Positions 15,251 through 61,863 of a stretch of DNA of 64,000 nucleotides are shown here, piece after piece. A program made the translations under genes and the position numbers. Each line of letters begins with the position of its first letter. Positions within the stretch are counted from its first letter, which is position 1. A model generated the notes under the pieces. The model was not told where the DNA came from. It did not search any database and worked only from the letters and a program-made list of their open reading frames with translations. This stretch comes from Candidatus Magasanikiibacteriota bacterium (GTDB taxonomy: Bacteria > Patescibacteriota > Patescibacteriia > Magasanikbacterales > UBA922): contig JBAYVA010000002.1 of NCBI GenBank assembly GCA_041674805.1, positions 83,234 to 147,233 of the forward strand, given 5' to 3'.

Positions 15251-15764
15251 ATGTTTGTTGTTTTATTAGTATATATATATTTATATAACTAGTAATATAT
15301 AATAAGGCCTGTGTGTAAAGTGCGAAAGTCGTTTTTTTGTTTTGGTTGACTTATTTTTTTGTGTGGACTTCTGCGCTTAAACTGTGTTTTTAAATGTGGT
15401 ATTTCTGGTGATAACTTTTTTTTAATTTTTTTCCTGTTGATGAACTGTTGATTTGTGGATAGATTATGAACAGTCTTTTTTTAGTTATCAACTTTTTTGT
15501 TATCGAGAATTTTTTTTGTGAATTGTTTGTTATTAACTTTTTTTAAATATTATTTTTAAAGGAATAATTTTTATTAGTTTTTGTTTGTCTTGTCAGAACT
15601 CTTAGTTTGGAGTTGATAGAATGAATCTAATAAAAATATAATTTTTTGTTTGCTAATAAAACTTCTCTGTTTTTTTGTTGAGAAATTTTTCAAAAATTAT
15701 AATGATTTACAATTTTTGAAAAATCCCTCATCTTTTTTTTAAAAAGATTTTTGGGATTATTTTT
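15251..15764. promoter_or_regulatory. dnaA-dnaN intergenic region, oriC part: DnaA-box-like sites plus an AT-rich unwinding element
   Basis: TGTGGATAG at 15454-15462 and TGTGGACTT near 15362. An extremely AT-rich tract runs 15530-15600. No ORFs. Confidence 0.5.
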
Positions 15765-17150
15765 TTAAACAGCGTTGGAATATAATCTTTGTTTTATCAT
15801 TTCCAAATCTTGTTTGAGCTTTAAGTCGTTGTCTATACTTTGTAATATTTTACTGTGTGCATGCATAGCTGTAGTATGATCTCTACCACCTAGTTCATCA
15901 CCTATATTTGGATAAGAAAGTTTCAACTCTTCTCTTAGCAAATACATGATAATTTGACGTGGAAAAGCTAATTTTTTTTCACGACTTTTGCCGAGTACAT
16001 CATCGATAGAGATATCAAAATAACCAGCTACGACATTTATTATTTCACGAGGAGTTAAAGAACGTTTCATACTTTGTTCTTCAAAACTAGATAATACTTG
16101 TTTAATAGTTTCTTCAGTTGCTTCAATATTTTTTAGTTCGTGATAAGCAATAATTTTGTTGAGAGCGCCTTCTAATTCACGAATATTATTTTTAACATTT
16201 GTCGCAATAAATTGGATAAGTTTTCCTTCAATTTTGAAATCTTTTTCCTGAGCTTTTCTTTGTAGAATAGCTAAACGAGTTTCTAAGTCAGGAGGAGAAA
16301 TATCAGCAATCATACCCCATTCAAATCTACTGCGTAAGCGATCTTCTAAAGCAGGTATGGCTTTTGGTGGTCTATCACTTGTTAAAACAACTTGTTTACC
16401 TTGTTGGTGTAATTCGTTGAAAGTGTGAAAAAATTCTTCTTGTGTTTGTTCTTTGCCACCAATAAATTGAATATCATCAATCAAAAGTAAATCAACATTT
16501 CTATATCTATCTTTGAATTCTTTGGCTCTACCTTCTTTTACAGAAGAAACAAATTCATTGGTAAATTTTTCAGAACTAACGTATAAAATTTTTGTTTGAG
16601 GATTGGCCTCAAGCATAGTATGGCCAATCGCTTGTATAAGATGAGTTTTTCCCAAACCTACTCCTCCATAAATGAATAAAGGGTTGTAAGAATCTCCAGG
16701 ACGACGAGCTACGGCTTGAGCTGCAGCATGAGCAAGTTCATTACCTTTACCTACGACAAAAGTATCAAAAGTATATTTTGGATTCAAACCAAATTGCTGA
16801 ACCAAAGTATTTTTTCTTTGGTTATTGTATAAAGGGTTTGTAATAGTAGAAATTTGTGGTAACTTCTCTGACATTTTACATTCAGATTCTTTGATATTTT
16901 TTATATTTTCTACTATATAATCTACTTTTTTGATAGGTTTGCCTGTCACTCTTTCTAAGATCTTGATTATTTGAGAGTGATGCTTCTTTTCTAACCAACT
17001 CTTTGTAAAGGAGTTAGGAACACAAATATTCACTAATCCTTCTTCATAATTTGCTATTCCTGTGTTTTTGAACCATGTCGTAAATTGAGCTTTGGATAAA
17101 CTTAGCTCAAATTCGGCCAAAACAGCTTGCCAGATTTCGTGAGTGGTCAT
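15765..17150 (-). CDS. dnaA: Chromosomal replication initiator protein DnaA
   Basis: 461 aa. Walker A GGVGLGKTHL, sensor and box VII motifs, and the C-terminal DNA-binding helix (LSYPNIGDELGGRDHTTAMHA). Confidence 0.9.
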   Translation of the reverse strand: MTTHEIWQAVLAEFELSLSKAQFTTWFKNTGIANYEEGLVNICVPNSFTKSWLEKKHHSQIIKILERVTGKPIKKVDYIVENIKNIKESECKMSEKLPQISTITNPLYNNQRKNTLVQQFGLNPKYTFDTFVVGKGNELAHAAAQAVARRPGDSYNPLFIYGGVGLGKTHLIQAIGHTMLEANPQTKILYVSSEKFTNEFVSSVKEGRAKEFKDRYRNVDLLLIDDIQFIGGKEQTQEEFFHTFNELHQQGKQVVLTSDRPPKAIPALEDRLRSRFEWGMIADISPPDLETRLAILQRKAQEKDFKIEGKLIQFIATNVKNNIRELEGALNKIIAYHELKNIEATEETIKQVLSSFEEQSMKRSLTPREIINVVAGYFDISIDDVLGKSREKKLAFPRQIIMYLLREELKLSYPNIGDELGGRDHTTAMHAHSKILQSIDNDLKLKQDLEMIKQRLYSNAV

Positions 17151-17733
17151 AGATAAAGTCTTTATTTTTATGTTTTTTCATTTTATCACAGTTTGCTAAT
17201 TTAAAAAATCCTCTAAATTAAGCTAAAAGTGCATAAAGTTGTGGACAACTTGTGGATTCTGTGGATAATTTGGCTAAAATACTTTATATTTTTTATTAAA
17301 AAATTATGAACAGTTTGGAGATTTTTACTTTTTTTATTTTAGAAAAATAGATTTTTTGTTAATAGCGTTTTTTTGCTAATTTTAGTAAAAAATGAATAAA
17401 AATAGTTGATTGCTTTATTATAATAACACATCCTTCACTCGTAGCAAAAACAAAGGTCAGAAATGTTTTTTTACCAATGTTTTTGTCTAAAGGTGGATAA
17501 TTACTACGAAATAATACAATTTATACCCTATTTTTGATTTTATTAGGATTTGTAGATTCATTAATTTTGATTAATGTGGTCAATTTATTAGATTTTTGTG
17601 TTTTTTGAAGTTGAAAATTTTTTTTATGTAAGTTAGTTTTTCTTATTATTGTCTAAGTTTTTATCAATACTTGACAAAACTTTAAATTTTTTGTATTATT
17701 TAGCTACATTATTTAGTTTTGAACTTATAAGTT
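17151..17733. promoter_or_regulatory. oriC / dnaA upstream region with clustered DnaA boxes
   Basis: TGTGGACAA at 17240-17248, TGTGGATTC at 17251-17259, a perfect TGTGGATAA at 17260-17268 and GGTGGATAA at 17492-17500. The region is flanked by divergent rpmH and dnaA. Confidence 0.7.
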
Positions 17734-19915: not shown

Positions 19916-21283
19916 TTAATGATTATGACCTGTATGATCTTCGTGATCTTCTTCTGCCATGGCATGTCCGTGAGAATGTTCTTCATGCTTATGTCTTTCA
20001 CCTTCTACTAATTTATCTGCCAAAAAGTTTACAACTTTTTTATTTAATAGCATGTTGTGAATAGAATCAAGTACTTCTGGTTTTTTCAAATTTTCTAGAT
20101 ACTCAGCAGTTTCTTTGTAGTATTCACGTAGATTTTTTACTTCAGCATCTAATTCATCTTTGGAAATAGTTAGACTGTGTGCTAGAGCTACTTCACGAGA
20201 AAGCAATGAAGCTTTGGCTCTATCAGTTGCTTTGTTTCTAAAATCTTCTTGTAATTCTTTTTCATTTTTTTTGATGTCTTGTAAATATTGTTCAATTGTT
20301 ACACCATGTTTTTCTAAATCATGTTGTAATTCATAAAACATTTTTTTGAGTTCAGCTTCTACTAACACTTCTGGAATTTCTTCAAATTTAGTTTCTTTGA
20401 TCAATGTTTCAAACATTTCTATTTCAGCTATTTCATCAGCTTTGTGTTCAGCTTCGTGAGTCAAATTTTCTTTGATTAGGTCTTTTAATTTGTCTAAACT
20501 TTCTTGTCCTAATACTTTGGCAAAAGCATCGTCTGCTTTTGGTATTTCTCTACCAAAAACTTCTTTTACTTTTACTTTGAATTTGCCAGTTTTACCAGCT
20601 AATTGTGCACTATAATAATTTTTTGGAAAAGGTAAATCAAATTCTTTTTCATCACCTTTTTCTAAACCAATCAAAGCATCATTGAAACCAGGGATATGTT
20701 GATGATCTTCTGATAAATAAACATTGTAATCAATAGCCTGTCCACCTTCTACTGGTACTCCATCCAAAAACAAATTCATATCTATAACGATCTTGTCTTC
20801 TTTTGTTGCTTTGCCTTTTTTGATTACTTCTTTTGCTTGCATTTTTAATAAATTATCAATAGTTTCATTTACTGATTGATCATTTACTTCTTTGACTGTT
20901 CTTTTTATTTTGATTGATTCTAATTTTGGTAATTCAACTTTTGGTAACAAAGCTACTTTGGCAGAATAAACTAAATCATTAGCAGGTGCCATTTTTTGAA
21001 TATTGATATCTGGCATGCCAATAGTATTTAATTTTTCAGCTGTTACAGTTTGATAAAAACTGTCTTGGATAATATCTTCCAAAGCTTCTTGCAAAAGTTT
21101 CATTTCACCTACTTCTTGTTTGACCATTTCAAAAGGAGCTTTGCCTTTGCGGAAACCTCTAATAGCTACACGATTTGAAATAGTAGTAGCTGCTTTTTCT
21201 AAATGTTTTTGATAATCTTTTGGACTAACTGTAATAGTAAGTTCAATTTGTGATTTTTCTAATTTTTCTATTTTGTGTTCCAT
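19916..21283 (-). CDS. tig: Trigger factor (ribosome-associated PPIase chaperone) with an unusual His-rich C-terminal tail
   Basis: N-terminal ribosome-binding motif GFRKGKAP and an FKBP-like middle domain. The C-terminus reads HKHEEHSHGHAMAEEDHEDHTGHNH. Confidence 0.85.
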   Translation of the reverse strand: MEHKIEKLEKSQIELTITVSPKDYQKHLEKAATTISNRVAIRGFRKGKAPFEMVKQEVGEMKLLQEALEDIIQDSFYQTVTAEKLNTIGMPDINIQKMAPANDLVYSAKVALLPKVELPKLESIKIKRTVKEVNDQSVNETIDNLLKMQAKEVIKKGKATKEDKIVIDMNLFLDGVPVEGGQAIDYNVYLSEDHQHIPGFNDALIGLEKGDEKEFDLPFPKNYYSAQLAGKTGKFKVKVKEVFGREIPKADDAFAKVLGQESLDKLKDLIKENLTHEAEHKADEIAEIEMFETLIKETKFEEIPEVLVEAELKKMFYELQHDLEKHGVTIEQYLQDIKKNEKELQEDFRNKATDRAKASLLSREVALAHSLTISKDELDAEVKNLREYYKETAEYLENLKKPEVLDSIHNMLLNKKVVNFLADKLVEGERHKHEEHSHGHAMAEEDHEDHTGHNH

Positions 21284-21298
21284 ACTTTATTTTTTAAA

Positions 21299-21337
21299 AC
21301 GCGGAATTACGCGGACTTTTACGCGGATAGACGCGGA
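21299..21337. promoter_or_regulatory. Four direct ACGCGGA repeats (spacings 10/12/10) in the tig leader, between the tig promoter and its start codon
   Basis: The sequence reads ACGCGGAATTACGCGGACTTTTACGCGGATAGACGCGGAAAG. The 20-mer TTACGCGGATAGACGCGGAA recurs at 43447-43466 upstream of thyA. Confidence 0.55.
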
Positions 21338-21381
21338 AAGTGACCAAAATAATGCGTTTATTTTTGATTAAAAAGTGGCTA

Positions 21382-21410
21382 TAATATAGCTTGTTTTGCT
21401 TGAAATGTCA
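21382..21410 (-). promoter_or_regulatory. Sigma70-like promoter for tig (minus strand)
   Basis: On the minus strand: TTGACA - 17 nt - TATATT. Confidence 0.6.
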
Positions 21411-21415
21411 ACTGT

Positions 21416-21459
21416 TGGCAAGCAGAGTAAGCAAAGTAAGCAGAATAGGCATAATAAGT
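21416..21459. repeat. Iteron block of four roughly 9-bp TNTGCYTAY units abutting the -35 of both the tig promoter and the divergent cassette promoter. A second copy lies at 24970-25012 upstream of polA.
   Basis: Read on the minus strand: AACTTATTATGCCTATTCTGCTTACTTTGCTTACTCTGCTTGCC. Compare AACTTATTCTGCCTATTTTGCTTACTTTGCTTATTTTGCTTGC at 24970. Confidence 0.6.
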
Positions 21460-21460
21460 T

Positions 21461-21490
21461 TTTGACGAGGATATTTTTTGGTGTTATTGT
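21461..21490 (+). promoter_or_regulatory. Sigma70-like promoter driving the GC-rich mini-cassette
   Basis: TTGACG - 17/18 nt - TATTGT. Confidence 0.5.
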
Positions 21491-21508
21491 TTGTTGCGGA
21501 GGTGAGAA

Positions 21509-21646
21509 ATGAAAGAATTTCTTGAGACCCTCATCGGCATTCTCGCTTCCCTTTTTTGGGGAGCGGTGTTCGCCGTTTTCCTCTTTGATGAGGAAGCGGC
21601 GGCGACCTTCCTGCGAGGGGAGGTCAAATATGTCACGGGGGTTTGA
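21509..21646 (+). CDS. Small hydrophobic single-TM peptide (45 aa) inside the GC-rich cassette. It is below the ORF-track size cutoff.
   Basis: A GGAGGTGA Shine-Dalgarno lies 6 nt before the ATG. Hand translation gives MKEFLETLIGILASLFWGAVFAVFLFDEEAAATFLRGEVKYVTGV. Local GC is far above the genome background. Confidence 0.45.
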   Translation: MKEFLETLIGILASLFWGAVFAVFLFDEEAAATFLRGEVKYVTGV

Positions 21647-21689
21647 AAAGGAGGGCGGTCCGGGCGTACGTGCGCGGACCAAACTCATA

Positions 21690-21727
21690 AATTAAGACCG
21701 TTTTTCTTTATTGAAAGACGGTTTTTT
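21690..21727 (+). terminator. Intrinsic terminator/attenuator inside the cassette
   Basis: AGACCGT-(loop)-ACGGTTT followed by TTTTTTTT. Confidence 0.5.
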
Positions 21728-21784
21728 TTGACAGTTCATTTTTTTGTAGTAGTTTTTAAATATCTTCCACGGAAGGAGGTGGTT

Positions 21785-21976
21785 GTGGGTGGTGAGAGCC
21801 CCTTTCATACGCTGATCCAGTGTCCAAACTGTAGGCGTTATACGGACTCAAGAGAGTTCGAAACGCTGACAAAAGATGGGGGAGAGTACAAAAAGTGCCC
21901 ATATTGTGGGTGGTCACATCTTGTGTCTATGCCCTCGGCGTACTTTAAGTATAGGAGGGACGATGGAATTAATTAG
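21785..21976 (+). CDS. Zinc-ribbon mini-protein (about 63 aa, GTG start) in the GC-rich cassette
   Basis: An AAGGAGGTG Shine-Dalgarno sits just upstream. The sequence contains CPNCRRY...CPYCGW (CxxC-x25-CxxC). It lies in the same frame as track ORF 21728..21976, whose AT-rich 5' part overlaps the terminator. Confidence 0.45.
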   Translation: MGGESPFHTLIQCPNCRRYTDSREFETLTKDGGEYKKCPYCGWSHLVSMPSAYFKYRRDDGIN

Positions 21977-22065
21977 GTAAGGGGTGGGGAAGGTGGATGC
22001 GCGCGACTTCTACGAAAGTGGTTGTCGTGCGCGTTCGTTCAAATAAAAAATAAAATTTTAAAATT

Positions 22066-22099
22066 AAAAAAACACTCTCAAATTGAGAGTGTTTTTTAT
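22066..22099. terminator. Bidirectional terminator (3' end of the H+-PPase gene and right edge of the cassette)
   Basis: ACACTCTCA-AAT-TGAGAGTGT with flanking A/T runs. Confidence 0.6.
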
Positions 22100-22119
22100 T
22101 TCAGTTTAAATCAATGCTT

Positions 22120-24108
22120 TTATTTTAACAAACCAATTATGAGCAAAGCCACAATGTTAGCCACTTTGATCATAGGATTGATTGCAGGGCCAGCTGTGTC
22201 CTTGTAAGGGTCACCTACAGTGTCACCAGTGACAGCAGCTTGATGTGCAAAACTTCCTTTACCACCGTGATTGCCTTCTTCAATATATTTTTTTGCATTG
22301 TCCCAAGCACCACCACCAGTAGTCATAGAAATTGCGACGAATAGACCGGTGATAATAGTACCAACAAGCAAACCACCAAGAGCAGCAGCACCCAAGAAAT
22401 AACCAACTAAGATTGGAGCTACAACAGGGATAACTGCTGGTAAAATCATTTGACCAATAGCACCTTTAGTTACTATATCTACTGTTTTGGCATAGTCAGG
22501 TTTGGCTTGACCTTCCATAATACCTTTGATTTCACGGAATTGTCTGCGAACTTCTTCTACTACACTACCAGCTACTTTACCTACTGATTGCATTAGTAAT
22601 GAACCAAATAAGTAAGGAAGCAAACCACCAATAAATAAACCTGTCAAAACTTTTGGATCATCAATTCTAAATACTGTACTGATACCTTCTGCATCAAGTT
22701 TGTGTGTGAAATCTGCAAATAATACTAGAGCAGCTAGAGCAGCTGAAGCGATAGCATAACCTTTGGTAACAGCTTTTGTGGTGTTGCCAACAGCATCTAG
22801 CGGATCTGTAACATTTCTAACATCTTCTCCAAGTTCTGCCATTTCGGCGATACCACCAGCATTGTCAGTGATAGGTCCATAAGCGTCGATTGCTACGACA
22901 ATACCAGTAAGAGAAAGCATAGACATAGCAGCGATAGCTACTCCGTAAAGTCCCATGAAGTGATAAGCTACAAGCATACCGGCGACAATAGCCAATACTG
23001 GCAAAGCAGTTGATTTCATGGATACTGCTAGACCTGTGATGACATTGGTACCATGACCTGTTTCACTAGATTTTGCAATTTGTTTTACAGGAGCATATTT
23101 GGTTGAAGTATAATATTCAGTAATCCAAACCATAGCACCAGTAAGTACGATACCAACTACAGTTGTCCAGAAAACATCAGCAGTAGTCGCATTTAAATCA
23201 GCAGCGTAGTGTCTACTCAAGAAAAAGAAACCAATTATTGAGAAAAGGCCAGACATTATTAGACCTTTGTACAAAGCTCCCATGATGTTGTTCTTTTTGC
23301 CAAGTCTGATGAAGAAACTTCCAAAGATTGAAGCAATAATAGAAATAGCTCCAAGCATAAGAGGAAACATAATACCTGCAGTAGTACCAACAAAAGTAAG
23401 TCCACCAAGTACCATCGCAGCGACAGCTGTTACTGCATAAGTTTCAAACAAGTCAGCAGCCATACCAGCACAGTCACCGACGTTGTCACCGACGTTGTCA
23501 GCAATTACAGCTGGATTACGAGGATCATCTTCTGGAATACCTTTTTCTACTTTTCCAACTAAATCAGCTCCGACGTCAGCAGCTTTGGTAAAAATACCAC
23601 CACCGATACGAGCGAATATTGAGATAAGACTACCACCGAAAGCTAATCCAATAAGAGCATCTAGGTCTTTGGTCAATAAATAAAAACCAGCAACTCCCAA
23701 AAGTCCAAGACCAACTACGAGTAAACCAGTAACAGTACCACCTTTGACAGCTACATCTAAAGCAGCTTTTAAACCTTTTTTGGCAGCTTCAGTAGTACGA
23801 ACATTGGCTTTGACAGATACATTCATACCTACAAAACCAGCAATTCCAGAGAAAAGAGCTCCAACTAGGAAACCTAGTCCAGTCATCCAGCCTAAAGTTA
23901 GTCCAAGAACCAAGAAAACAAGGATAGCTACATAAGAAATAGTCTTATATTGGCGAGCCAAATAAGCTTTGGCACCTTCTTGGATAGCGCGAGCAATATT
24001 TTGCATGCGTTCTGATCCTGTAGGCTGTTTGTTTATCCATTGAATTAAAAAGATACCGTAACCAATCGCCAAAACGGCTGGTCCGATAAGCAGTAGTGTT
24101 GTTAGCAT
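22120..24108 (-). CDS. hppA: Membrane-bound proton/sodium-translocating pyrophosphatase
   Basis: 662 aa with about 16 TM helices. Conserved motifs [19 protein letters not shown] and [21 protein letters not shown]. Confidence 0.9.
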
Positions 24109-24253
24109 ACTCTACTTTATAAATTAAAAATAAATGAATTAATAGGTAGATTATAGGGAAAAAGGGTTGAAAAGTCAAGGGAACTTAGTCAAAAGTCTAT
24201 AAAGTTCGTAAAGTTGAAAGTCGTTTAAAAAACAAAAAATAGTCTTTTTAGGA

Positions 24254-24898
24254 CTATTTTTTAATTTGGATAAGTTTGGCTAGTTGTTTTTGGCTTATTT
24301 TCAATAGATCTTCTAGTTTCGTTTCTTTATTTTTCTGTAAATAATTTTTTACCAGGAAATAGCCTATTACTCTACCTATATATGCAGGTTTGCTTTTGGG
24401 ATTATGAAACCATTTGGCAGGGTTGTAATCTTTTAGCTTAAAAAATCTTTTATTTTTGTTTATCAGGTCTTCAACTTCATTTTTGTTTAATTCAAAATTT
24501 TCGGTTAGGGCGAATTTGGTAATTGTTTTTTCAAAGTTTAGGGCCACGCCGTGCAGTAATATTTCTTCTAATAGTGTCTTAGGAAAGCCAAATTTCTGGT
24601 AAATACTGAGTAAATAAAGATCATTAGAAACAGGGCGTCTGACGTATTGTTTGAGATATTTTTTGAATTTTTTGTGTTTGGTGTCAAAAGTAACAGCTAG
24701 TACATTGTCGTTTATTATTCTGGTTTCCACAGCGCTACCAACACGAGTTCCGTCCTCCATAACTAAAATATCAACATTCTTAGTGTCAAGATATTTGGAA
24801 ATTTGTTTCAATACCAAATCAAACTCTTTTTTTAGTCGGGTGTTATAGGGTTTTAGCAGAGGGTTAGCTTGGAGAATGTGGAGGTGGATGTTTTTCAT
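24254..24898 (-). CDS. Hypothetical basic protein (214 aa)
   Basis: ORF only. No motif I can name. Confidence 0.3.
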   Translation of the reverse strand: MKNIHLHILQANPLLKPYNTRLKKEFDLVLKQISKYLDTKNVDILVMEDGTRVGSAVETRIINDNVLAVTFDTKHKKFKKYLKQYVRRPVSNDLYLLSIYQKFGFPKTLLEEILLHGVALNFEKTITKFALTENFELNKNEVEDLINKNKRFFKLKDYNPAKWFHNPKSKPAYIGRVIGYFLVKNYLQKNKETKLEDLLKISQKQLAKLIQIKK

Positions 24899-25042
24899 AA
24901 ATATATAGATAAAGTAATTAAAGTATATCTCTTTGTCTTTGTCTAGTCAAAAGCTAATAATTTTAAGGTAACTTATTCTGCCTATTTTGCTTACTTTGCT
25001 TATTTTGCTTGCTATGTTACAATATACTGGATAATAAAAATT

Positions 25043-27766
25043 ATGACAGAAACAAAAGAACAAAATTTTAAAAAACTAGTAATAATTGACGGTAACGCCA
25101 TTGTTCACCGTGCTTATCACGCCCTACCACCCATGCGAGTAAAAGATGGTAGTATGGTAAATGTAGTTTATGGTTTTGCGTCTATGTTGCTCAAGATTAT
25201 CAATGATGTGAAGCCAGAATATTTGGCTGTGAGTTTTGATGTGGCAGGTGGTACTTTTCGTGATGAAATTTTTGCTGATTATAAAGCCACACGTGTCAAA
25301 GCGGATCAAGATTTATATGATCAATTTCCTCTTGTTTATGATTTAGTTAATGCTTTCAATATTCCTATTTTTACCAAAGAAGGATTTGAAGCTGATGATG
25401 TTATTGGTACTTTGGCGTTCGATGTTGCAGGGATACGAAATACAAAAAATACAAAATTACGAAATGTAAAATCGTTAATTGTGACAGGAGATAAAGATTT
25501 ATTACAGTTAGTAGATGATAAACATAATATCGAAGTGATGTTGCTTAAAAAAGGCATGTCAGAGTTTGAAAGTTGTAATGAGCAAGGTGTAATAGATAAA
25601 TTTGGTTTTGGTCCAGACATGATAATTTCTTACAAATCTTTGTGTGGCGATGCTTCTGATAATATCCCGGGTGTCAAAGGTATTGGAGATAAAACAGCTA
25701 CAGGTTTGATAATTCAAATAGGTAGTATTGATAAAATTTATGAAGAATTAGAAAATAAGTCTTCTGATATTTATGAAGAATTTAGTTCTTCAGTAATAAA
25801 TAAATTAATTGAACAAAAAGAAAGTGCTTTGATGAGTAAAGACTTGGCTACTATTCGTACTGATGTAGAAGGAATTGATTTTGATTTGGAAAAAGCCAAG
25901 ACACAAGATTTTGATAGAGAAAAAATAGTATCTCTTTTTCAAAAATTTGAATTTTATTCTTTGATAAAAAGATTGCCAGGTTCAGAAAATGTTTTAATAC
26001 AAAAAAACAAAAAAACAAAAAATAAATTACAATTATCAAAAAAAATAATTAGAGTAGATGAAAAAAATGTTGAAGAATTAATAAAAAATATTTTGCAAGA
26101 GAAATATTTTGTAGCCAAAGAAATTATGTTAGATGATAATATTTTTGCTTCTAATAATTTTTCTCTTTTGATTTCTACTTTGAAAGAAAACTATTTTTTT
26201 GAAAATATAAATTCAAAAGTATTCAAAATTTTTGAAAATGAAAAAATATTTTTTGTAGGGCATGATTTGAAAAATCTTATCAAACTTATTCAATTACAAA
26301 AAATTGAAATAAAAAATAAGATTTTTGATACGATGATAGCTTCTTATATTTTGAATTCTAGTACGAGAGCTCATGATATCAAGTCAGTTTGTTTGCGTGA
26401 GCTTGGCAAAGAGATTTTGATTTTGGATGCACAAAAAAGTTTGTTTGGTATAGACCCTAAAAACACTTTGGAAGAAATACAAGCTACTTTGGAAGTATAT
26501 ACTATTTATCGAGAAAAATTGAAAATAGAAAAAAATGAAGATTTGTATTTTGATATAGAAATGCCATTATTGAAAGTACTGGCTGAAATGGAGTTAAATG
26601 GTATTGCGATAGATGTAGATATGTTGAATGATTTGTCACAACAAGTAAATAAGACTTTGGGAAAACTGGAAAAACAAATTTGGGAAGAAGCTGGTGAAGA
26701 ATTTAATGTAGCTTCATCTGTACAGTTGCGTGATATTTTGTTTGATAAAATGGATTTACCTACTCAAGGTATCAAAAAAGGTAAAACTGGTTATTCTACT
26801 GCTGCAGCTGAATTGGAAAAATTGCGAGATTTCCATCCGATTATTTCTTATATAGAGGAATTTCGTGAATTGGAAAAATTGCGTAATACGTATATAGATG
26901 TTTTACCAAATTTACGTAATCAATTGACTAATAGAATTCATACTACTTATAATCAAACAGTAGCTTCCACAGGACGTCTTTCTAGTTCTGATCCAAATCT
27001 GCAAAATATTCCGATTCGTACTGAACTTGGTAAAAAAGTTCGCGAAGTTTTTATAGCTGAAAAAGGTAATGCTTTGATTGCCGCAGATTATTCACAAATC
27101 GAATTGCGTGTGGTGGCTTCACTGGCAAAAGATGAAAGAATGATTGAAATTTTCAAAAATAAACAAGATATTCATACTGCTACAGCGGCTGCTATCAATG
27201 GTGTTGATCTAAAAGATGTAACTAAAGAAATGCGTCGGGCTGCCAAAGAAGTTAATTTTGGAGTTTTGTATGGTATGGGTGCTTTTGGTTTAGCTTCTCG
27301 TACTGGTATTAGTCGTTATGATGCTCAAGAATTTATAGATAAATATTTTGCAAATTTTTCTGGTGTAAAAAAGTATATGGAAAATATTTTGAAACAAGCA
27401 GAAGAAGATGGTTTTGTAGAAACATTGTTTGGGCGTCGTCGTTATATTCCAGAATTACACTCTAATAATTTTCAATTACGTTCTTCAGGTGAAAGAATGG
27501 CAGTAAATATGCCAGTTCAAGGTACTGCAGCAGATATTATGAAACTTGCTATGATTGCAGTTAGTAATAAAATAAATATCAAAAAATATGAAAACAAAGT
27601 AAGATTGTGTTTGCAAGTACACGATGAATTGGTATTAGAAGTTAGTGAAGATTTGAAAGATGAAATTGCTGAATTAGTAAAACACGAAATGGAAAATGTA
27701 ATGAAATTAGAAGTACCTCTTGATGTAGAAGTAAATGTTGGTTATAGTTGGGGACGTCTTAAGTAA
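25043..27766 (+). CDS. polA: DNA polymerase I with a 5'-3' nuclease domain. The 3'-5' exonuclease domain appears to lack catalytic residues.
   Basis: N-terminal FEN-like domain (IIDGNAIVHRAYHA, GVKGIGDKTA). Pol A motifs DYSQIELR, KEVNFGVLYGMG and VHDELVLEV. The Exo I position reads FVAKEIMLDD rather than DxE. Confidence 0.9.
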   Translation: MTETKEQNFKKLVIIDGNAIVHRAYHALPPMRVKDGSMVNVVYGFASMLLKIINDVKPEYLAVSFDVAGGTFRDEIFADYKATRVKADQDLYDQFPLVYDLVNAFNIPIFTKEGFEADDVIGTLAFDVAGIRNTKNTKLRNVKSLIVTGDKDLLQLVDDKHNIEVMLLKKGMSEFESCNEQGVIDKFGFGPDMIISYKSLCGDASDNIPGVKGIGDKTATGLIIQIGSIDKIYEELENKSSDIYEEFSSSVINKLIEQKESALMSKDLATIRTDVEGIDFDLEKAKTQDFDREKIVSLFQKFEFYSLIKRLPGSENVLIQKNKKTKNKLQLSKKIIRVDEKNVEELIKNILQEKYFVAKEIMLDDNIFASNNFSLLISTLKENYFFENINSKVFKIFENEKIFFVGHDLKNLIKLIQLQKIEIKNKIFDTMIASYILNSSTRAHDIKSVCLRELGKEILILDAQKSLFGIDPKNTLEEIQATLEVYTIYREKLKIEKNEDLYFDIEMPLLKVLAEMELNGIAIDVDMLNDLSQQVNKTLGKLEKQIWEEAGEEFNVASSVQLRDILFDKMDLPTQGIKKGKTGYSTAAAELEKLRDFHPIISYIEEFRELEKLRNTYIDVLPNLRNQLTNRIHTTYNQTVASTGRLSSSDPNLQNIPIRTELGKKVREVFIAEKGNALIAADYSQIELRVVASLAKDERMIEIFKNKQDIHTATAAAINGVDLKDVTKEMRRAAKEVNFGVLYGMGAFGLASRTGISRYDAQEFIDKYFANFSGVKKYMENILKQAEEDGFVETLFGRRRYIPELHSNNFQLRSSGERMAVNMPVQGTAADIMKLAMIAVSNKINIKKYENKVRLCLQVHDELVLEVSEDLKDEIAELVKHEMENVMKLEVPLDVEVNVGYSWGRLK

Positions 27767-27861
27767 GCACCTAATCACTTTATCACTTAAATACTTTTTT
27801 ATTTTTAAAATAACCAACCTACGGTCACATCCGGAACATCCGGATTATCTGTATATCAGGA

Positions 27862-28830
27862 TTGTTTATGATTATATTTCTATACGGCAAAGACACTTAC
27901 CGTAGTAAACAACAACTCAAAAAAATGGTTGAGAAGTTCAAAGTTGAACGTGACCCACAGGGCTACAATGTGGTTGATTTGGATTGTGAAAAAGAAGATA
28001 AAAATAATATTTTACAACAAATGCTCACCTCCCCTTTTTTGGCAGAAAAGAAAATGGTGATTTTGAAAAACTTATTGACAACGACAGAACACAAAGATTT
28101 TTTGAAAGAAATAAAAAAAAGAATAGAGGAAAATAATTTTCCAGAAAATAATATTATTGTTTTTTGGGAGAATACTGATATTTTCAAAAATAAAAATTCC
28201 AAAGAATTATCTGAAGTTTTGAAGACAGAAAAATTTGCACAATTTTTTGGAGAATTAAAAGGTTTGGATTTATCAAATTGGATTAAACAAGAAGTTTCTT
28301 TACGTGGTGGAAAAATTGAGGTACCTTCTTTGAATTATTTGTTACAAAACTTTTCTTTGGATATGTGGTCTTTATCAAATTTATTGGATCAATTGTTATC
28401 ATATAATACAGCAATTGATTTAGTGACTACTCAAAAATTTGTAGAAGAAAAAATTGATGATAATATTTTTAATCTCGTAGATGCTATTGTCGCTGGCCAA
28501 AAAAATAAAGCTTTCAAAATGATTCGCAAACAATATGAAAAAGGAGAAGATGCACAGTTTATTTTTGCCATGTTGTTGCGTCAGTTTAGAATTTTGCTTG
28601 AGATGCGTGAAATATATGAGAAACAAGATAGTATTCATAGTAATGATTTAGCAAAGATGCTCGGACTTCATCCTTTTGTAGTTACCAAATCACTCGTTTT
28701 TGTAAAAAGATATACTTTGTCTCATTTGAAAAATATTTATTTAAAATTATTGGAAATGGATACCAAAACAAAAACTGGTCAGGGAGACCAGTCTTTATTG
28801 ATTGATGTTTTGGTGGGAACAACAATGTAA
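27862..28830 (+). CDS. holA: DNA polymerase III delta subunit (clamp-loader subunit)
   Basis: 322 aa. Begins IIFLYGKDTYR... with a HolA-like helical layout. Located directly after polA. Confidence 0.55.
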   Translation: MFMIIFLYGKDTYRSKQQLKKMVEKFKVERDPQGYNVVDLDCEKEDKNNILQQMLTSPFLAEKKMVILKNLLTTTEHKDFLKEIKKRIEENNFPENNIIVFWENTDIFKNKNSKELSEVLKTEKFAQFFGELKGLDLSNWIKQEVSLRGGKIEVPSLNYLLQNFSLDMWSLSNLLDQLLSYNTAIDLVTTQKFVEEKIDDNIFNLVDAIVAGQKNKAFKMIRKQYEKGEDAQFIFAMLLRQFRILLEMREIYEKQDSIHSNDLAKMLGLHPFVVTKSLVFVKRYTLSHLKNIYLKLLEMDTKTKTGQGDQSLLIDVLVGTTM

Positions 28831-28857
28831 TCTTGATTAGAACTACATAAACTAACA

Positions 28858-38815: not shown

Positions 38816-38978
38816 TAATCTAGATGGTCATTTTATTATTTCAATTTTATCTCTTCGTTATTGTAAAATAAGATAGATATAAGGAGATAAAATGGAGATG
38901 ATTAAATTATCTCTATCTTATATCTGTTTTATCTCAATTTTTTGCTCGAGTCTTTAGTAAATAAAACACAAATTATAT

Positions 38979-44363: not shown

Positions 44364-44834
44364 ATGCTTTCACTTATCGCCGCTATTTCAGAAAATAATT
44401 GCATTGGAAAAAACAATGCTTTGCCTTGGAATATCAAAGAAGACATGAAACATTTCAAAGAAATTACTAGTGGAAATATTGTTCTTATGGGACGTAATAC
44501 TTGGGAATCAATTCCCGAAAGATTTCGTCCACTGCCAAATAGAAAAAATATTGTGATTACTCGCGATGAAAATTATTTGTTGCCAGAAAATGTAGAAAAA
44601 TATTTTAGTATTGAAGAAGCTCTTGAAAAATACAAAAATGAAAATGTTTTTATCATTGGTGGAGCAAGTATTTATAAACAAACAATTGATATTGCTGATA
44701 AACTATATATTACCGAAGTTCACAAGACATTTGATGGAGATGTTTTTTTCCCAGAAATAAATAAAAATATTTGGAAAGAAGTTGGGCGTGAAGATTTTGG
44801 TGAATTTAGTTTTGTTGAGTACTCTCATAAATAA
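44364..44834 (+). CDS. folA: Dihydrofolate reductase
   Basis: IAAISENNCIGKNNALPW...LMGRNTWESIP...IIGGASIY. Confidence 0.85.
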   Translation: MLSLIAAISENNCIGKNNALPWNIKEDMKHFKEITSGNIVLMGRNTWESIPERFRPLPNRKNIVITRDENYLLPENVEKYFSIEEALEKYKNENVFIIGGASIYKQTIDIADKLYITEVHKTFDGDVFFPEINKNIWKEVGREDFGEFSFVEYSHK

Positions 44835-44887
44835 ATTGAGATAAAATAGAGATACAATTGAGATAATTTTTTTAAATAAAATAATTT

Positions 44888-49438: not shown

Positions 49439-50089
49439 TTATTCTATATTTATTTTATCTCCCAAAAACTTTGGTTGAATATCAAATAATAAATCAAGCA
49501 TCATTTTGAGTCGTGCGAAGCTTTCCCTGATTTGTATTTTTGTATTAGCATAAGATTTTACATTACGAGCATTGTATCCTATAGCGTCTATACCTTTTTT
49601 GTTGGCAATATATATGGCACGTTCATTGTGGAATTTTTGTGAGATGATAGTAATATTCTCTTGTCCAAATATTTCTTTGCTTCGGACGACTGAGTCTAGA
49701 GTTCGAAAGCCAGCATAATCGAGGAAGATGCTCGAAGTCGGCACGCCAGCTTCTATCAAATCATTTTGAATAGTTGTTGGTTCATTGTATTTCTTTGTGC
49801 TGTTGTCTCCACTTACTAAAATAAAATCAATTTTGTTAGCTTCAAAAAGTTTTTTGGCAGCTGTAATTCTATAAGCATAATAAGCATTTATTCTGCCATC
49901 TTTCAAATATTTACTTGTGCCGAGTAATAATCCGACTTTGTTGTGAGGAATATTTTCTATTGAATCATAAATTTTTTCGTCAGTGTTTTTTTCTATTATT
50001 TTGTTGGTGATAATAATAGATGAAGAAAGAAAAATAAAACTCAAGAAAAAAATTAGTAAAAGTTTTAAGAATATTTTTTTCATAATCAA
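49439..50089 (-). CDS. DUF218 (SanA/YdcF/ElyC-family) envelope protein
   Basis: N-terminal TM, then DFILVSGDNSTKKYNEPTTIQNDL...ITIISQKFHNERAIYIANK, the DUF218 core. Confidence 0.65.
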   Translation of the reverse strand: MIMKKIFLKLLLIFFLSFIFLSSSIIITNKIIEKNTDEKIYDSIENIPHNKVGLLLGTSKYLKDGRINAYYAYRITAAKKLFEANKIDFILVSGDNSTKKYNEPTTIQNDLIEAGVPTSSIFLDYAGFRTLDSVVRSKEIFGQENITIISQKFHNERAIYIANKKGIDAIGYNARNVKSYANTKIQIRESFARLKMMLDLLFDIQPKFLGDKINIE

Positions 50090-50643: not shown

Positions 50644-50866
50644 AGTTTATAGACTTTACAAAGGTTCAATGTTATGTTATTTTAACATATGCGGAAGATA
50701 TTGACAAAAGTAGCAAAATGTGCTACACTACTCCGTTTATTACACATATATAAAAAGGCTTTATTTAGCCGATTAATTCATAATTTACAAATGGTTGTGA
50801 TTTCCATAAACCATTATAATGTGTAGTCATTTTAATTTATACATATTAAGTCTAATATATTCGTCT

Positions 50867-53788
50867 ATGAAAAAGAACTTTTTCGCTAAACTAGGCCATT
50901 TTTTCCTGGTTTCAGCTGTTTTATTCAATGGTTTTGGTGTAGCCTTTGTGAAGGCTGATGTTGTAGAAGTTTTGGGTATGTCTCCAAATACAGCAACTTT
51001 GTCTGAGGGTGACATTAACCCTATTTCTTTAGTAACAATTTCTAATTCATCTACTAGTACTATAAATCTAACATTTACTATGTCAGGTGAAGCTGTTAGA
51101 AGTATAGATGGTAGTGGTGATTATGAATTGTTTGTTGGGGAAGGTTCTCCATTTGTAGTTGTTGATACAAACTTAATAAGTGTGCCTGCAAATGATTCTG
51201 TCATCTTTCCTATAAATATTATAAATGACACAGTATCAGAAAATGCAGAATCTTTTGGTTTGACATTTGAAACAGCTAGTTATGATGATGAAAATAGAAC
51301 ACCTGTAGAAGGTTTTAGTTCTCGTGGTGCTATAAATTTTACTATCAATGATAATGATATTACACCTCCTACTTTTGATACTATTGTCCCTAGTCCATTT
51401 TCAAGAAATGAAAGTGATAATTTTGGTGGTATTGCTACTTTTATAAATAATGCTAGTACAACTTTAGATTTTCATTTTGAAATTAGTGGAACAGCTTCTA
51501 CATCTGATTATATAATTGAAACAACTAGTCGTAGTATAAATGAAAATGGAGATGTTATGGCGGTGCCTAATAGTGTGGATTTAGAAAATGGTATAATTAG
51601 TGGGGTTACAGGAAATGAAAAAAGAAGATTTAATTTTAAACCAGTAGAGGACACAGAAGTAGAAATTGATGAAACAGTTATTATTACATTGAAATATGCT
51701 ACTGATATTGAACAAAGAGTTTATGATTTTGCAGATATTTCTTACACTACTATTATTAAAGATAATGATACTGCATCCACTACTACCACAGCTAACGTCA
51801 CATTTTCTTTTTCAACTTCTACTATTAATGAAAATTCTGGTAATGTAAATGTTGCTAATGTTATTAATAATGAAAATCAAGATGTATCTGTGAAATTTAC
51901 ATTTTCTGGCACAGCAGTATATGGCACAGACTATACTTTGAGATCAGGAACTGGTACTTCTATTTTTGGTAATGGTACAGAAGCAGTACTTTTGATAGGT
52001 ATTAATAGTAGTAGTAGTTTTCCTTTGACTCTGAATACAGTTGATAGTGATAAAACTGTTGAAATTACTCTTACACAAGTAAATTTTGCGGATAATTCAA
52101 CAACAACATCTTTCACTGCAGGAAATGTTACAACACATACACTTACTATCAAAAATGTTCCTACATCAGGTGAAAATAATATTCCAACAATAAAAACACC
52201 GATAGCCACACAATATATAGATCTTTATGTTACTTCTACATTAACTATTAATAATGAAATATTAAAGAATTTATTTTTTGATTTAGATACTAATGATAGA
52301 GTTGGTATTAGTTTGACTAATAATACAGATGCTACTGTTGTAACAACAACATCAGACATAGAATTTTCTAGTTTAGTATTAACAGGTTTAAAAGTTGGAA
52401 CAAGTACTATTGAACTTACTGGTGATGATCATCGTGGTGGTATTGTTACCTCAACTTTCGATGTAATCGTTACTGATTCTACTCCTGTTGAGGGAAATAA
52501 TGCTCCAACATCAACTGTAATAGATGATAAAACATTGGAGGTTGGTCAGACTTTTGATATTATTCCTAGTGTTATTTTTGAAGATGTAGAAGATAGTGAT
52601 GATAAGTTAACTTATGGTGTAGAAATTAGTGCTGGTTCTGTTGTTTCTGTAACAACAACAAATTTTACAAATTCTTGGGCATATACTTTTACTGCTGAAA
52701 GTGTAGGTACTTCTACAATTACTCTTAGTGCAACTGATTTGGGTGGTCTTAGTACAAGTACATCATTTAAGGTAACTGTCACAGAAGATGTAACACCTAT
52801 ATTAATAAAAGAAATAGTTAATCAAACTTTAAAAGTAGGTGAAAGTGTAGTTTTGAACTTAAATGATTATTTTTCAGATCCAAACGAAGATGTCTTGTCT
52901 TTTTTAACAAGTATTAACGTTCCAAATTTAATTACTACAACACTTAATACTGAAACAAATAAATTAACAATTACTGGTGTAGCTATAGGTACAACTCTTA
53001 TGAGTGTTACTGCCTCTGATAGTCAACATAGTGTTTATGATATATTTAATGTCACAGTAAAAGAAAATAATGAAGGTAATACTGATAACAATACCGGTTC
53101 AAGTAACGGCGGTGGTAGTTTATTACCAAACACAGCTCCTCAAGCTTCTATGGTTGTTGGTCAAGAAGTAACTATCGAAGTAAACAAAGAAATTACTTTT
53201 GATGCTAGTAGTAGTGTAGATAAAGAAGGAAACATTAGATTTTATTTCTGGAACTTTGGTGACGGAAGTGATGAAGTATATTACACTGTCCCAACAGTCA
53301 AATATACTTATACTAAAATAGGTAATTACACTTTGAATATCAAAGTAAAAGATGCTTACGGTGCTGAGAGTAGTGCGCAAGTAAAGGTAAAAGTTGTAGC
53401 TGGCAAAGCTTCTACAAATACGGGAACTCCAAATACTAATACTGAAAGTGGAACTAAAACTGAAACTGAAACTACAACTTCTACTTCAACAACTGATACC
53501 CCAACTCCTGTAGAAGAAACTGGAAGTACTGGTAGTACAAATAATAATACTAACAATAACACTTCTGCTAATAATACTGAAGAAGAAGCAATAACAACTG
53601 AGGAAGAAAATACTTCTATAGAAGAAGAGACTACTTCTGAAAATACTGAAGAAGAAATTACTGAAGAAGTACCTGCTGAAACAACAGAAGAATTACCAAC
53701 TTGGATCAAGATCATCTTTGGCAGTGGTGCTCTAGCTGCTATTGCTGGCGCTGGACTTGCTATCAATAGAGTGAGAAAAAATGTGTAA
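50867..53788 (+). CDS. Giant surface protein A (about 973 aa from the MKKNFF start): signal peptide, Ig/cadherin-like beta-sandwich repeats, PKD domain, Thr/Glu-rich acidic stalk, and a C-terminal ELPTW plus TM plus RVRKN anchor
   Basis: Signal peptide MKKNFFAKLGHFFLVSAVLFNGFGVAFVKA. PKD segment ITFDASSSVDKEGNIRFYFWNFGDGSDEVYYTVPTVKYTYTKIGNYTLNIKVKDAYGAES. C-terminus EELPTWIKIIFGSGALAAIAGAGLAINRVRKNV. The track ORF starts 16 codons earlier at a non-conserved ATG. Confidence 0.7.
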   Translation: MKKNFFAKLGHFFLVSAVLFNGFGVAFVKADVVEVLGMSPNTATLSEGDINPISLVTISNSSTSTINLTFTMSGEAVRSIDGSGDYELFVGEGSPFVVVDTNLISVPANDSVIFPINIINDTVSENAESFGLTFETASYDDENRTPVEGFSSRGAINFTINDNDITPPTFDTIVPSPFSRNESDNFGGIATFINNASTTLDFHFEISGTASTSDYIIETTSRSINENGDVMAVPNSVDLENGIISGVTGNEKRRFNFKPVEDTEVEIDETVIITLKYATDIEQRVYDFADISYTTIIKDNDTASTTTTANVTFSFSTSTINENSGNVNVANVINNENQDVSVKFTFSGTAVYGTDYTLRSGTGTSIFGNGTEAVLLIGINSSSSFPLTLNTVDSDKTVEITLTQVNFADNSTTTSFTAGNVTTHTLTIKNVPTSGENNIPTIKTPIATQYIDLYVTSTLTINNEILKNLFFDLDTNDRVGISLTNNTDATVVTTTSDIEFSSLVLTGLKVGTSTIELTGDDHRGGIVTSTFDVIVTDSTPVEGNNAPTSTVIDDKTLEVGQTFDIIPSVIFEDVEDSDDKLTYGVEISAGSVVSVTTTNFTNSWAYTFTAESVGTSTITLSATDLGGLSTSTSFKVTVTEDVTPILIKEIVNQTLKVGESVVLNLNDYFSDPNEDVLSFLTSINVPNLITTTLNTETNKLTITGVAIGTTLMSVTASDSQHSVYDIFNVTVKENNEGNTDNNTGSSNGGGSLLPNTAPQASMVVGQEVTIEVNKEITFDASSSVDKEGNIRFYFWNFGDGSDEVYYTVPTVKYTYTKIGNYTLNIKVKDAYGAESSAQVKVKVVAGKASTNTGTPNTNTESGTKTETETTTSTSTTDTPTPVEETGSTGSTNNNTNNNTSANNTEEEAITTEEENTSIEEETTSENTEEEITEEVPAETTEELPTWIKIIFGSGALAAIAGAGLAINRVRKNV

Positions 53789-54158
53789 GATTGTTTGATA
53801 ATATAAAAAATAAAGAAGCTATTCATATATATTGAGTAGCTTCTTTTTTTATGAAGTTTTGATTGTTCACACATAGACTTTACAAGATATAAAGATTATG
53901 TTAATTTAATATATGTAGGATGTTGACAAAAATAGTATGGTATGTTGTTAATTTCTCTCATATTTAGATACATTCAAAGGCTTTATTTGGCCAATTAGTA
54001 ATTCAAAATGGTCGTGACCATTCACATAAACCATTGTAATATATAGTCAGTTTACTCATACTTAAAAAGTATGATAAATTTATCTATTAATTCATACTAA
54101 TTGAGTATGATATATTTAACTTATTAATTCAAAATTACCAAGTTTAATATATTTACTT

Positions 54159-57431: not shown

Positions 57432-57452
57432 TTTCTTAATTGTGAAATTAAA

Positions 57453-61630: not shown

Positions 61631-61863
61631 ACATTTTTTTGTTGAAAGTGCTCCTTAGTTTTTAAGGAGTATTTTTTTGACATTGCAATAACACAAATAC
61701 TCACGAATATTCACAAATATTTTTTTTGGTTAGTTCTATTATCTCCATTTTATCTCTATTTATTATTAGATTTTATTAAAATATAAAAATATTCCGCCCA
61801 AGGCTGATCAGTCTTCGCTGAAAAAGTATTAAAACACTCTCGTTAAGTAAGTATTTCAAAATT

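Follow-up and report, generated by a model that had tools for sequence, protein, structure and literature searches.

A short repeat element was found in two inverted copies in a 64,000-nucleotide stretch of DNA from Candidatus Magasanikbacteria, which belongs to the candidate phyla radiation (CPR; Patescibacteria) and is represented here by a metagenome-assembled genome (MAG). The whole stretch is referred to as the window, and positions are counted from its first letter. One copy (the left block) adjoins the promoter of tig and the other (the right block) that of polA, in a region located a few kilobases from dnaA, dnaN, and rpmH. Both blocks represent one short, discrete repeat element of this Magasanikbacteria clade, an element made up of tandem 9-bp TGCYTAYTY units. 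As judged from the sequences, intergenic arrays of a wider family in CPR/Patescibacteria genomes are built from the same units. This family is apparently undescribed: a limited search of the literature gave no description of the unit strings or of tandem or palindromic repeats in CPR intergenic DNA. The block might be an operator-like array for a putative sequence-specific DNA-binding protein, partly co-opted as core promoter; this reading is held tentatively. An initial annotation of the same DNA had taken the blocks for an activator-binding or UP-element-like module at two promoters. That interpretation is partly supported: the block is a cis-element in promoter regions, but it is neither helically phased nor UP-like, its placement differs between the two promoters, and it is part of a dispersed family.

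Sequence and unit structure of the element

The two blocks are identical at 39 of 43 positions (91%) and form the longest and best inverted repeat of the window. When they are aligned together with their flanks, the identity breaks off abruptly at both block ends. Each block consists of four clear 9-bp units, TGCCTATTY TGCTTACTT TGCTTAYTY TGCTTGC, behind a degenerate head unit, AACTTATTM. As a discrete element, it has the head ACTTATTC-TGCCTATTC and the tail TGCTTGY. Both copies are oriented toward the outer gene, tig or polA, in agreement with the initial annotation. The position given there for the right copy is retained, but the left copy, given at 21416-21459, is corrected to 21418-21460 (Table 1).

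Three results exclude chance as the source of the block pair. When the sequence was shuffled 12 times with its local composition preserved, the best inverted match over 43 nt reached 30-33 of 43 positions. A two-unit pattern matched eight times in the window against 1.09 expected, a number attained in none of 100 shuffles. A profile of the block copies detected just the two sites, and its next best match had an E value of 0.38. The earlier statement that so long and nearly identical a block is not a chance similarity is thus borne out. The single unit TGCYTAY is not enriched in the window (35 occurrences against 30.9 expected), which means that the signal is the array and not a dispersed word. 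The same count led to rejection of a DNA uptake sequence. No third, diverged copy of the block was found in the window; a two-unit match at 49871-49886 is in coding sequence and is ascribed to chance. A single block folds worse than shuffled sequences (z = +0.8 to +1.3).

Table 1. Positions of the blocks, promoters, and genes in the block region. L003, L129, L140, and the like are handles of the genomes and loci compared; ORF, open reading frame.
Feature	Position	Strand	Remarks
Left block copy	21418-21460	minus	nhmmer E = 1.6e-13; minus-strand reading AACTTATTA TGCCTATTC TGCTTACTT TGCTTACTC TGCTTGC
Right block copy	24970-25012	plus	nhmmer E = 2.1e-12; reading AACTTATTC TGCCTATTT TGCTTACTT TGCTTATTT TGCTTGC; orthologous copies in L140 and L003
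tig (trigger factor)	19916-21283	minus	
tig promoter, TTGACA-N17-TATATT	21383-21411	minus	11/12 match; conserved in six relatives (alignment)
Divergent promoter for the 45-aa ORF, TTGACG-N17-TATTGT, TG-extended	21462-21490	plus	TTGACG conserved in L129, L003, and L150
Conserved 45-aa small ORF, divergent from tig	21509-21646	plus	GGAGGTG Shine-Dalgarno; homologues in L003 and L151 (35-36% identity)
hppA (H+-translocating pyrophosphatase)	22120-24108	minus	PF03030, 1.4e-271; polA-hppA-tig synteny conserved
DUF2268-like 214-aa gene, divergent from polA	24254-24898	minus	present in L140 and L151
Promoter-like site for the DUF2268-like gene, TTGACT-N17-TATACT	24922-24950	minus	10/12 match; 19 nt from the inner block end
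polA promoter	24996-25023	plus	-35-like TTGCTT (24996-25001, in unit 4), 16-nt spacer, extended -10 TGtTACAAT (25015-25023)
polA (DNA polymerase I)	25043-27766	plus	

Promoter contexts of the blocks and the segment between them

The promoters of tig and the small ORF stand back to back, and the 50 bp that separate their -35 hexamers are filled by the left block. Its outer end is located 6 nt upstream of the tig -35 hexamer (TTGACA, 21411-21406), the linker being CAACAG, and the divergent -35 hexamer, TTGACG, begins 1 nt past its inner end. Relative to the likely tig start, the block covers approximately -42 to -84. The initial annotation had placed both blocks directly upstream of a -35 hexamer, and at tig this holds.

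At polA it does not. The TTACAA taken there for a -35 hexamer is part of an extended -10 element, TGtTACAAT, 19 nt ahead of the polA ATG. Five relatives, some of them lacking the block, all have the sequence TGTTACAATAT unchanged upstream of polA, and this conservation means that TTACAA belongs to the extended -10. Moreover, a -10 element set 17 nt after TTACAA would land on the start codon. The motif matches the TGn-TAnnnT pattern and is predicted to belong to a sigma-70 extended -10 promoter; rpiB in relatives carries the same motif. The last two units of the right block supply the -35 hexamer (TTGCTT) and the 16-nt spacer of polA. Consequently, the two blocks are offset by about 24 bp with respect to their core promoters: the block ends at about -42 at tig but overlaps the -35 hexamer and spacer at polA, so that the equivalent placement assumed earlier is not found. 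The least that can be said of the two proximal units at polA and rpiB is that they form the predicted promoter -35 and spacer, since in L157 only these two units are retained at rpiB.

This geometry bears on the idea of an upstream activating module, either an activator array or a UP-like element, which would lie just upstream of the -35 hexamer and stimulate tig and polA. The equal orientation of the blocks to the outward genes, the location of the left block from -42 upstream, and the conservation of the block at polA and tig in some relatives are all in line with it. So are other promoters of the window, such as that of hppA, at which 9-bp arrays of other units abut the -35 hexamer. However, the polA block overlaps the -35 hexamer and spacer instead of lying upstream, and the 9-bp spacing puts the sites off a single face of the helix: successive sites rotate by approximately 51 degrees, so that the array is not helically phased, contrary to what had been proposed. 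Four relative lineages have a fully conserved tig promoter but no block. The lag-9 periodicity upstream of 13 predicted promoters of the window is barely raised (0.37 against 0.33). An activating role of this kind is considered improbable.

A UP element in particular, which is an A/T-rich tract at -40 to -60 that contacts the C-terminal domain of the alpha subunit, was rejected. The 21 nt adjoining the tig -35 hexamer (GCTTACTCTGCTTGCCAACAG) have about 50% G+C and are not A/T-rich, and the polA block overlaps the -35 hexamer and spacer. An array upstream of the -35 hexamer was also rejected as a general promoter architecture of this genome, because only a subset of promoters have arrays and the lag-9 enrichment is marginal.

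The two blocks bracket a 3.5-kb segment with 40-48% G+C, compared with about 30% in the surroundings. It contains only hppA, the DUF2268-like gene, and two small ORFs, and no transposase or recombinase was found inside it. The blocks might be regarded as boundaries of a mobile or invertible segment, serving as terminal inverted repeats or inversion sites. Their inverted arrangement around DNA of higher G+C agrees with such a role, as does a mosaic of identity between the window (23702-28840) and L140: the DUF2268-like gene, hppA, the block, and the first ~50 nt of polA are 91% identical at the nucleotide level, against 73-76% in the remainder of polA and in holA. Nevertheless, a mobile or invertible segment seems extremely improbable. 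Relatives whose Tig is 78% and 62% identical keep the polA-hppA-tig order, among them genomes with one block or both missing (L007, L151, and L003), and the segment has one orientation in all relatives seen (L003, L007, L140, and L151). HppA has 84-96% amino acid identity among the compared genomes, and the high conservation of this membrane protein accounts for the high G+C of the segment. The L140 mosaic suggests recombination between lineages, with a putative breakpoint near 25064-25095, that is, within the 5' end of polA and not at the block. In addition, the inner genes have their own promoters, and an inversion would be without effect.

Three specific forms of mobility were rejected. An inserted 3.5-kb island or transposon bounded by inverted repeats disagrees with the synteny seen without blocks, the lack of a transposase and of a target-site duplication, and the G+C content that tracks HppA. 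A miniature inverted-repeat transposable element (MITE) or composite transposon disagrees with this synteny, with the lack of target-site duplication, and with a single block that has no terminal inverted repeats. For an inverton, inverted repeats are present, but there is no recombinase inside and only one orientation in the four relatives.

Several other features of these loci were observed. The gene hppA has its own promoter, TTGACT-N17-TATAAT (window 24155-24265, minus), directly preceded by another 9-bp array (GACTTTCA ACTTTACGA ACTTTATAG ACTTTTGAC), and an intrinsic terminator follows the DUF2268-like gene upstream of this promoter. A module of array plus promoter of the hppA type also precedes hppA in L003 and ileS in L019, L034, L154, and L157. 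Near its 5' end, the polA gene of L140 carries a GC-rich insertion. Two tandem copies of ACATCCGGA (27827-27844) immediately precede holA, whose TTG start is at 27862, and TCCGGATA-type repeats also accompany the block in L093.

On the tig side, the 5' leader (21300-21340, minus) has four direct repeats, TCCGCGTCTA TCCGCGTAAAAG TCCGCGTAAT TCCGCG, between the promoter and the start codon. They are kept in the alignment with L003, L004, L129, L150, and L151, and TCCGTAA arrays resembling them flank TGCTTAY arrays in the Paceibacter loci L049 and L087. The 45-aa ORF is hydrophobic and was not called as a gene in the source assembly. Downstream of it, an 82-aa ORF (21728-21976, plus) shows CxxC...CxxC zinc-ribbon-like motifs with a score below the Pfam thresholds. 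The region of these two ORFs is unusually G+C-rich (42-48%).

Occurrence in the clade and in other CPR genomes

Tig identities divided the genomes into three sublineages, at about 76-78% identity to the window: that of the window itself, L129/L004/L151, and L003/L150. The polA-side copy is present in the window, L140, and L003; it is absent in L007 and in L151, where a degenerate trace only was seen. The tig-side copy is present in the window and in L129, with the same CAACAG linker, and absent in L003, L004-6, L150, and L151-3. The core promoters and the tig leader are conserved in all genomes compared for presence or absence of the block. Where the polA-side block is present, it differs from the window copy at 2 of 43 positions in L140 and at about 6 of 43 in L003, at a protein divergence of approximately 22-26%. 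The L140 copy equals the clade consensus of the element, from which each window copy is 2 positions off. The DNA just upstream of the block is unalignable between these genomes. At the tig sites, comparison of filled with empty ones showed that the whole spacer is replaced, with no target-site duplication.

The element is not confined to tig and polA. It precedes rpiB, which is divergent from ileS, in a head-to-tail form in L019, L034, and L154, and is followed there by TATGTTACAATATA, as at polA. In L157, just the two promoter-proximal units and TATGTTACAAT, with the extended -10, are left at rpiB, and in L159 no unit is left. The element also adjoins der/pth and rpmA (L093 and L146). In L093, copies flank pth, each right behind a stop codon and reverse to transcription, and in L146 a copy overlaps the 3' end of rpmA. 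None of the rpiB, ileS, der, pth, and rpmA loci is among the genes of the window. Conservation in relatives, which the initial annotation had named as a check, was found at polA in L140 and L003 and at tig in L129, together with a third promoter, rpiB, but the block is absent from the tig promoter in four of five relative lineages. The conserved positions in diverged relatives and the rpiB promoter make a cis-acting role, probably through protein binding, plausible.

It should be mentioned that small GC-rich palindromic inserts (CCTGCCGGCAGG-type and CTTGTCCGCCTTGGGYGGA-type) occur in intergenic DNA of the relatives, including the 9-bp arrays and the tig leader. Their sites are 220-240 and ~345-385 in L129, ~3830-3950 in L154, and ~1770-1800 in L093. 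They resemble a separate family of miniature insertions.

A scan of GTDB species genomes with a three-unit pattern gave more than 118 loci. Most of them, and likewise all viral matches, are homogeneous 9-bp microsatellites in unrelated taxa. CPR genomes with several loci include Ca. Paceibacter DYFM01 (at least six), UBA12086, JAHJGG01, PFPL01, and H41-bin286. In the CPR arrays, C and T variants of the unit are mixed, and the arrays are very often paired, inverted and close together, in short intergenic spacers. Such pairs are found between a MraY-type gene and an ATE_C-like gene in three different genomes, and between two iPGM paralogues in L104. The array of L046 lies downstream of a TTGACA-N17-TATAAT promoter and ahead of the Shine-Dalgarno sequence, at two paralogous genes. 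In L121, L104, L105, and L059, arrays abut or overlap start codons. A promoter of the form TTGnnn-N17-TAnnnT built into every array was rejected from the sequences: only T-joined units, as in the Magasanikbacteria block, contain the -35 hexamer, and most distant arrays do not.

The unit logo, T-G-C-[T>C]-T-A-[C/T]-T-[C/T], is equal in 94 units of distant CPR genomes, which include Paceibacter (at least six loci), UBA12086, and JAHJGG01, and in 41 units of the clade. Unit variation is from pyrimidine to pyrimidine only. The equal logo across distant genomes means that the unit is under constraint, as a recognition motif would be. In a crude context census of array clusters, 14 were in tandem, 9 in divergent, and 1 in convergent spacers, nearly all less than 150 nt from a gene start. 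The initial annotation had stated that a randomly located, dispersed repeat with no promoter association would speak against regulation. The first half of this picture was found, in that the element is dispersed; yet it is intergenic, with a gene start nearly always no more than 150 nt away.

The inverted pairs raise the possibility of a role in RNA. The CPR pairs fold into 20-24-bp stems (-28 to -52 kcal/mol) right after stop codons, and array pairs might fold into long hairpins with a role in termination, processing, or mRNA stabilisation. Within the window this would require long-range pairing, in a DUF2268-hppA transcript, of a reverse-complement array at its 5' end with a forward array at its 3' end. 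The pyrimidine-to-pyrimidine variation is compatible with G-U wobble, and there is a weak minus-strand promoter-like site right of the right block. On the other hand, the window copies stand in divergent regions, ahead of the best promoters of both strands, and are probably untranscribed. A single block is unstructured, and the orientation of single copies to transcription is inconsistent. Complementarity of the arms was no better within a locus (25.2) than between loci (24.2), and co-adapted hairpin arms were rejected on this ground. Rfam gave no gathering-score match in the window and none at E <= 1 in 21200-25100; a known RNA or hairpin was excluded by this and by the unstructured single block. 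A role in RNA is therefore regarded as very improbable.

Other repeats of the window were also noted. The spacers between tRNA-Ala, tRNA-Phe, and tRNA-Pro (1775-1860 and 1940-2035) are inverted arrays of short units (AAAGTT-type with period 9; TTGACA-like with period 7-9), which would form long hairpins. A third unit family, GAGATAA/TTATCTC with a period of about 11, is at 38870-38945, 44833-44866, and 61739-61761, as one inverted pair and two single arrays, of which one closely precedes a gene start at 44889. Two large paralogous segments at 50800-57450, about 3.6 kb apart and 76-86% identical over stretches of 140-300 nt (families D1-D3 and D7), contain Thr/Asn/Glu-rich low-complexity repeats and are probably tandem paralogous surface-protein genes. 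A 51-bp tandem duplication is located at 61021-61127.

Comparison with known systems and possible function

In its anatomy, the block most resembles the tandem operators of ribbon-helix-helix (RHH) type, and in its genomic distribution the repetitive extragenic palindromic (REP) sequences and bacterial interspersed mosaic elements (BIME). RHH-type arrays have 2-10 contiguous units of 7-11 bp, direct or inverted, along which the bound proteins spiral. Examples are the 8-bp metboxes of MetJ, the 7-bp heptads of the omega repressor on pSM19035, and the sites of ParR/ParG. These operators and centromeres share with the block contiguous short units that overlap or abut promoter hexamers, at a spacing below the helical turn. 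Here, four to five contiguous 9-bp units overlap the polA -35 hexamer and spacer and abut two -35 hexamers at tig. The differences are that the unit sequence is unrelated and that the copies are chromosomal, located at housekeeping genes, and dispersed over many CPR genomes.

The REP/BIME sequences of proteobacteria, including REPIN, are likewise short, dispersed, and strictly or mostly extragenic. A genome has several of them, often as inverted pairs within operons, right behind a stop codon, and related genomes differ in having them. Each REP element is an imperfect palindrome that folds into a hairpin; in contrast, a single block is a non-palindromic tandem array, complementarity being found only between paired arrays, and it was not assigned to REP on this ground. 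The unit core is common to CPR classes, whereas REP families are usually species-specific, and there are 2 copies per 64 kb. No RAYT (REP-associated tyrosine transposase) gene was found in the window region examined.

Other known systems are less similar. Plasmid origin iterons are also directly repeated short units that presumably bind protein, but they are 17-22 bp long and located beside a rep gene, with a DNA-unwinding element (DUE) and DnaA boxes at the origin. They were rejected, together with the earlier label "iteron", because the units are 9 bp and the neighbours are tig, hppA, the DUF2268-like gene, and polA, with no rep gene. MraZ boxes, which are 3-4 direct repeats with a period of about 10 nt upstream of the dcw operon, bound by oligomeric MraZ, share the tandem short motif beside a promoter. 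Compared by period and location only, the block differs in having a period of 9 instead of 10 and in not being at an mraZ promoter; the motif is also another one. LexA-type dyads are unlike a tandem array of 4-5 units. A sigma-54 -24/-12 promoter in the arrays, considered from the sequence, was rejected for unsuitable spacing. A phage or plasmid origin was rejected as well: no similarity was found in plasmid or phage collections, and the pattern matches in viral contigs are homogeneous microsatellites.

The candidate replication origin is 4-8 kb away, and DnaA boxes or an origin element were considered. They were rejected because the canonical boxes here, TTATCCACA, differ from TGCYTAYTY. A canonical TTATCCACA is at 17260, upstream of dnaA (15765-17150, minus), and the dnaA-dnaN spacer (15478-15543) contains CTATCCACA and GTTGATAAC-type boxes plus an array with period 15. 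Candidate oriC regions, 15251-15764 and 17151-17300, flank dnaA.

From this comparison, the following model of an operator-like array may be drawn. The units would be recognition sites of a putative sequence-specific DNA-binding protein, which would load side by side along the array. With the 9-bp spacing, it would spiral around the DNA, as RHH proteins do on tandem sites of 7-11 bp; such spacing is typical of proteins that polymerise or spiral on tandem sites, and not of activators bound to one face of the helix. At polA, and at rpiB in the relatives, occupancy of the array would occlude the promoter, the array thus being the operator. At tig, occupancy of the block might affect both the tig promoter and the divergent promoter of the small ORF. 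The sequences show the element and its units, where these lie relative to conserved promoter hexamers, the return of the element at orthologous and at non-orthologous loci, and the occurrence of the unit in several CPR classes. We infer that a protein binds, which way it would regulate, where transcription starts, and that the arrays of distant CPR genomes serve the same function.

Several observations point to the operator-like array, beginning with the non-chance pair with its sharp ends and the recurrence of the element at other loci. Three of them suggest both a function and a reader specific for the unit: the constraint on the 7-nt core across classes, the retention of orthologous copies where neutral DNA has diverged beyond alignment, and the operator-like positions of the arrays, which cover the -35 hexamer and spacer, separate divergent -35 hexamers, or are found in a 5' leader or at a start codon. 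The census rich in tandem and divergent contexts (14 and 9, against 1 convergent) was counted for it, as were the mixed units and inverted partners of the CPR arrays, compared with the homogeneous non-CPR and viral microsatellites. The lack of structure in a single block and of an Rfam match favours a role of the window copies as double-stranded DNA.

Other observations weigh against the operator-like array. The tig promoter is conserved and yet free of the block in four of five relative lineages, and the polA promoter in L151 and L007. The number of units varies from 2 to 5, the upstream units being dispensable or variable, and in L129 and L154 GC-rich palindromic insertions of 20-24 nt split the array and break its 9-bp register. 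Some copies are at gene 3' ends (L093 and L146), and one array is inside an ORF (L066). Across independent loci, the orientation of the arrays relative to the nearest gene is inconsistent. The genes served, among them polA, tig, rpiB, and pth, share no obvious common regulation. No candidate for the cognate binding protein was found; the neighbouring ORFs of 45 and 82 aa show no linkage to the block in the relatives.

The patchiness, the variable units, the insertions, the copies at 3' ends, the mixed gene set, and the orientation fit a neutral or selfish dispersed repeat equally well. Such a REP- or MITE-like repeat, spreading or decaying in CPR intergenic DNA, would have no dedicated regulatory role: TTGCTT would have been co-opted at polA and rpiB, and the block would be filler at tig. 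Among equally related genomes, the presence of the block is patchy where the promoters are intact, and the gap between the divergent -35 hexamers at tig varies from 30 to 71 nt among relatives, with unrelated sequence. The varied contexts, and the several copies per genome with inverted pairs after stop codons, which recall REP/BIME placement, also agree with it. Against this stand the single element, which is not palindromic, and the absence of terminal inverted repeats and, between filled and empty sites, of target-site duplication. No transposase or RAYT gene was seen in the window region, and there are only two copies in 64 kb. Moreover, orthologous copies show 0-6 changes where neutral non-coding DNA is unalignable, and the 7-nt core persists from one CPR class to another, as is rarely seen in REP families. 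A neutral or selfish repeat is the main rival reading, and a somewhat doubtful one.

A more far-reaching form of the operator-like array can also be considered. TGCYTAYTY arrays and sister arrays of other 9-bp units might constitute an undescribed CPR-wide cis-system read by a conserved putative protein, with the tig and polA blocks in a global regulon. The protein would then occupy the very short intergenic spacers, as operator and insulator in one, at gene 5' ends and after stop codons. So wide a system is unlikely.

CPR/Patescibacteria have genomes of about 1 Mb with few recognisable regulators and very short intergenic spacers, and to our knowledge almost nothing is known about their transcriptional control. 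A motif that recurs in promoters and spacers of several CPR classes offers a concrete experimental handle. The block may be used as bait, in DNA-affinity capture or DNA affinity purification sequencing (DAP-seq), for a lineage-wide DNA-binding factor, and as a marker for annotation of promoters and operon boundaries in MAGs. If the element is REP-like instead, it would, within the limits of our literature search, be the first such family in CPR, and would serve strain typing and studies of how repeats come to make up promoters.

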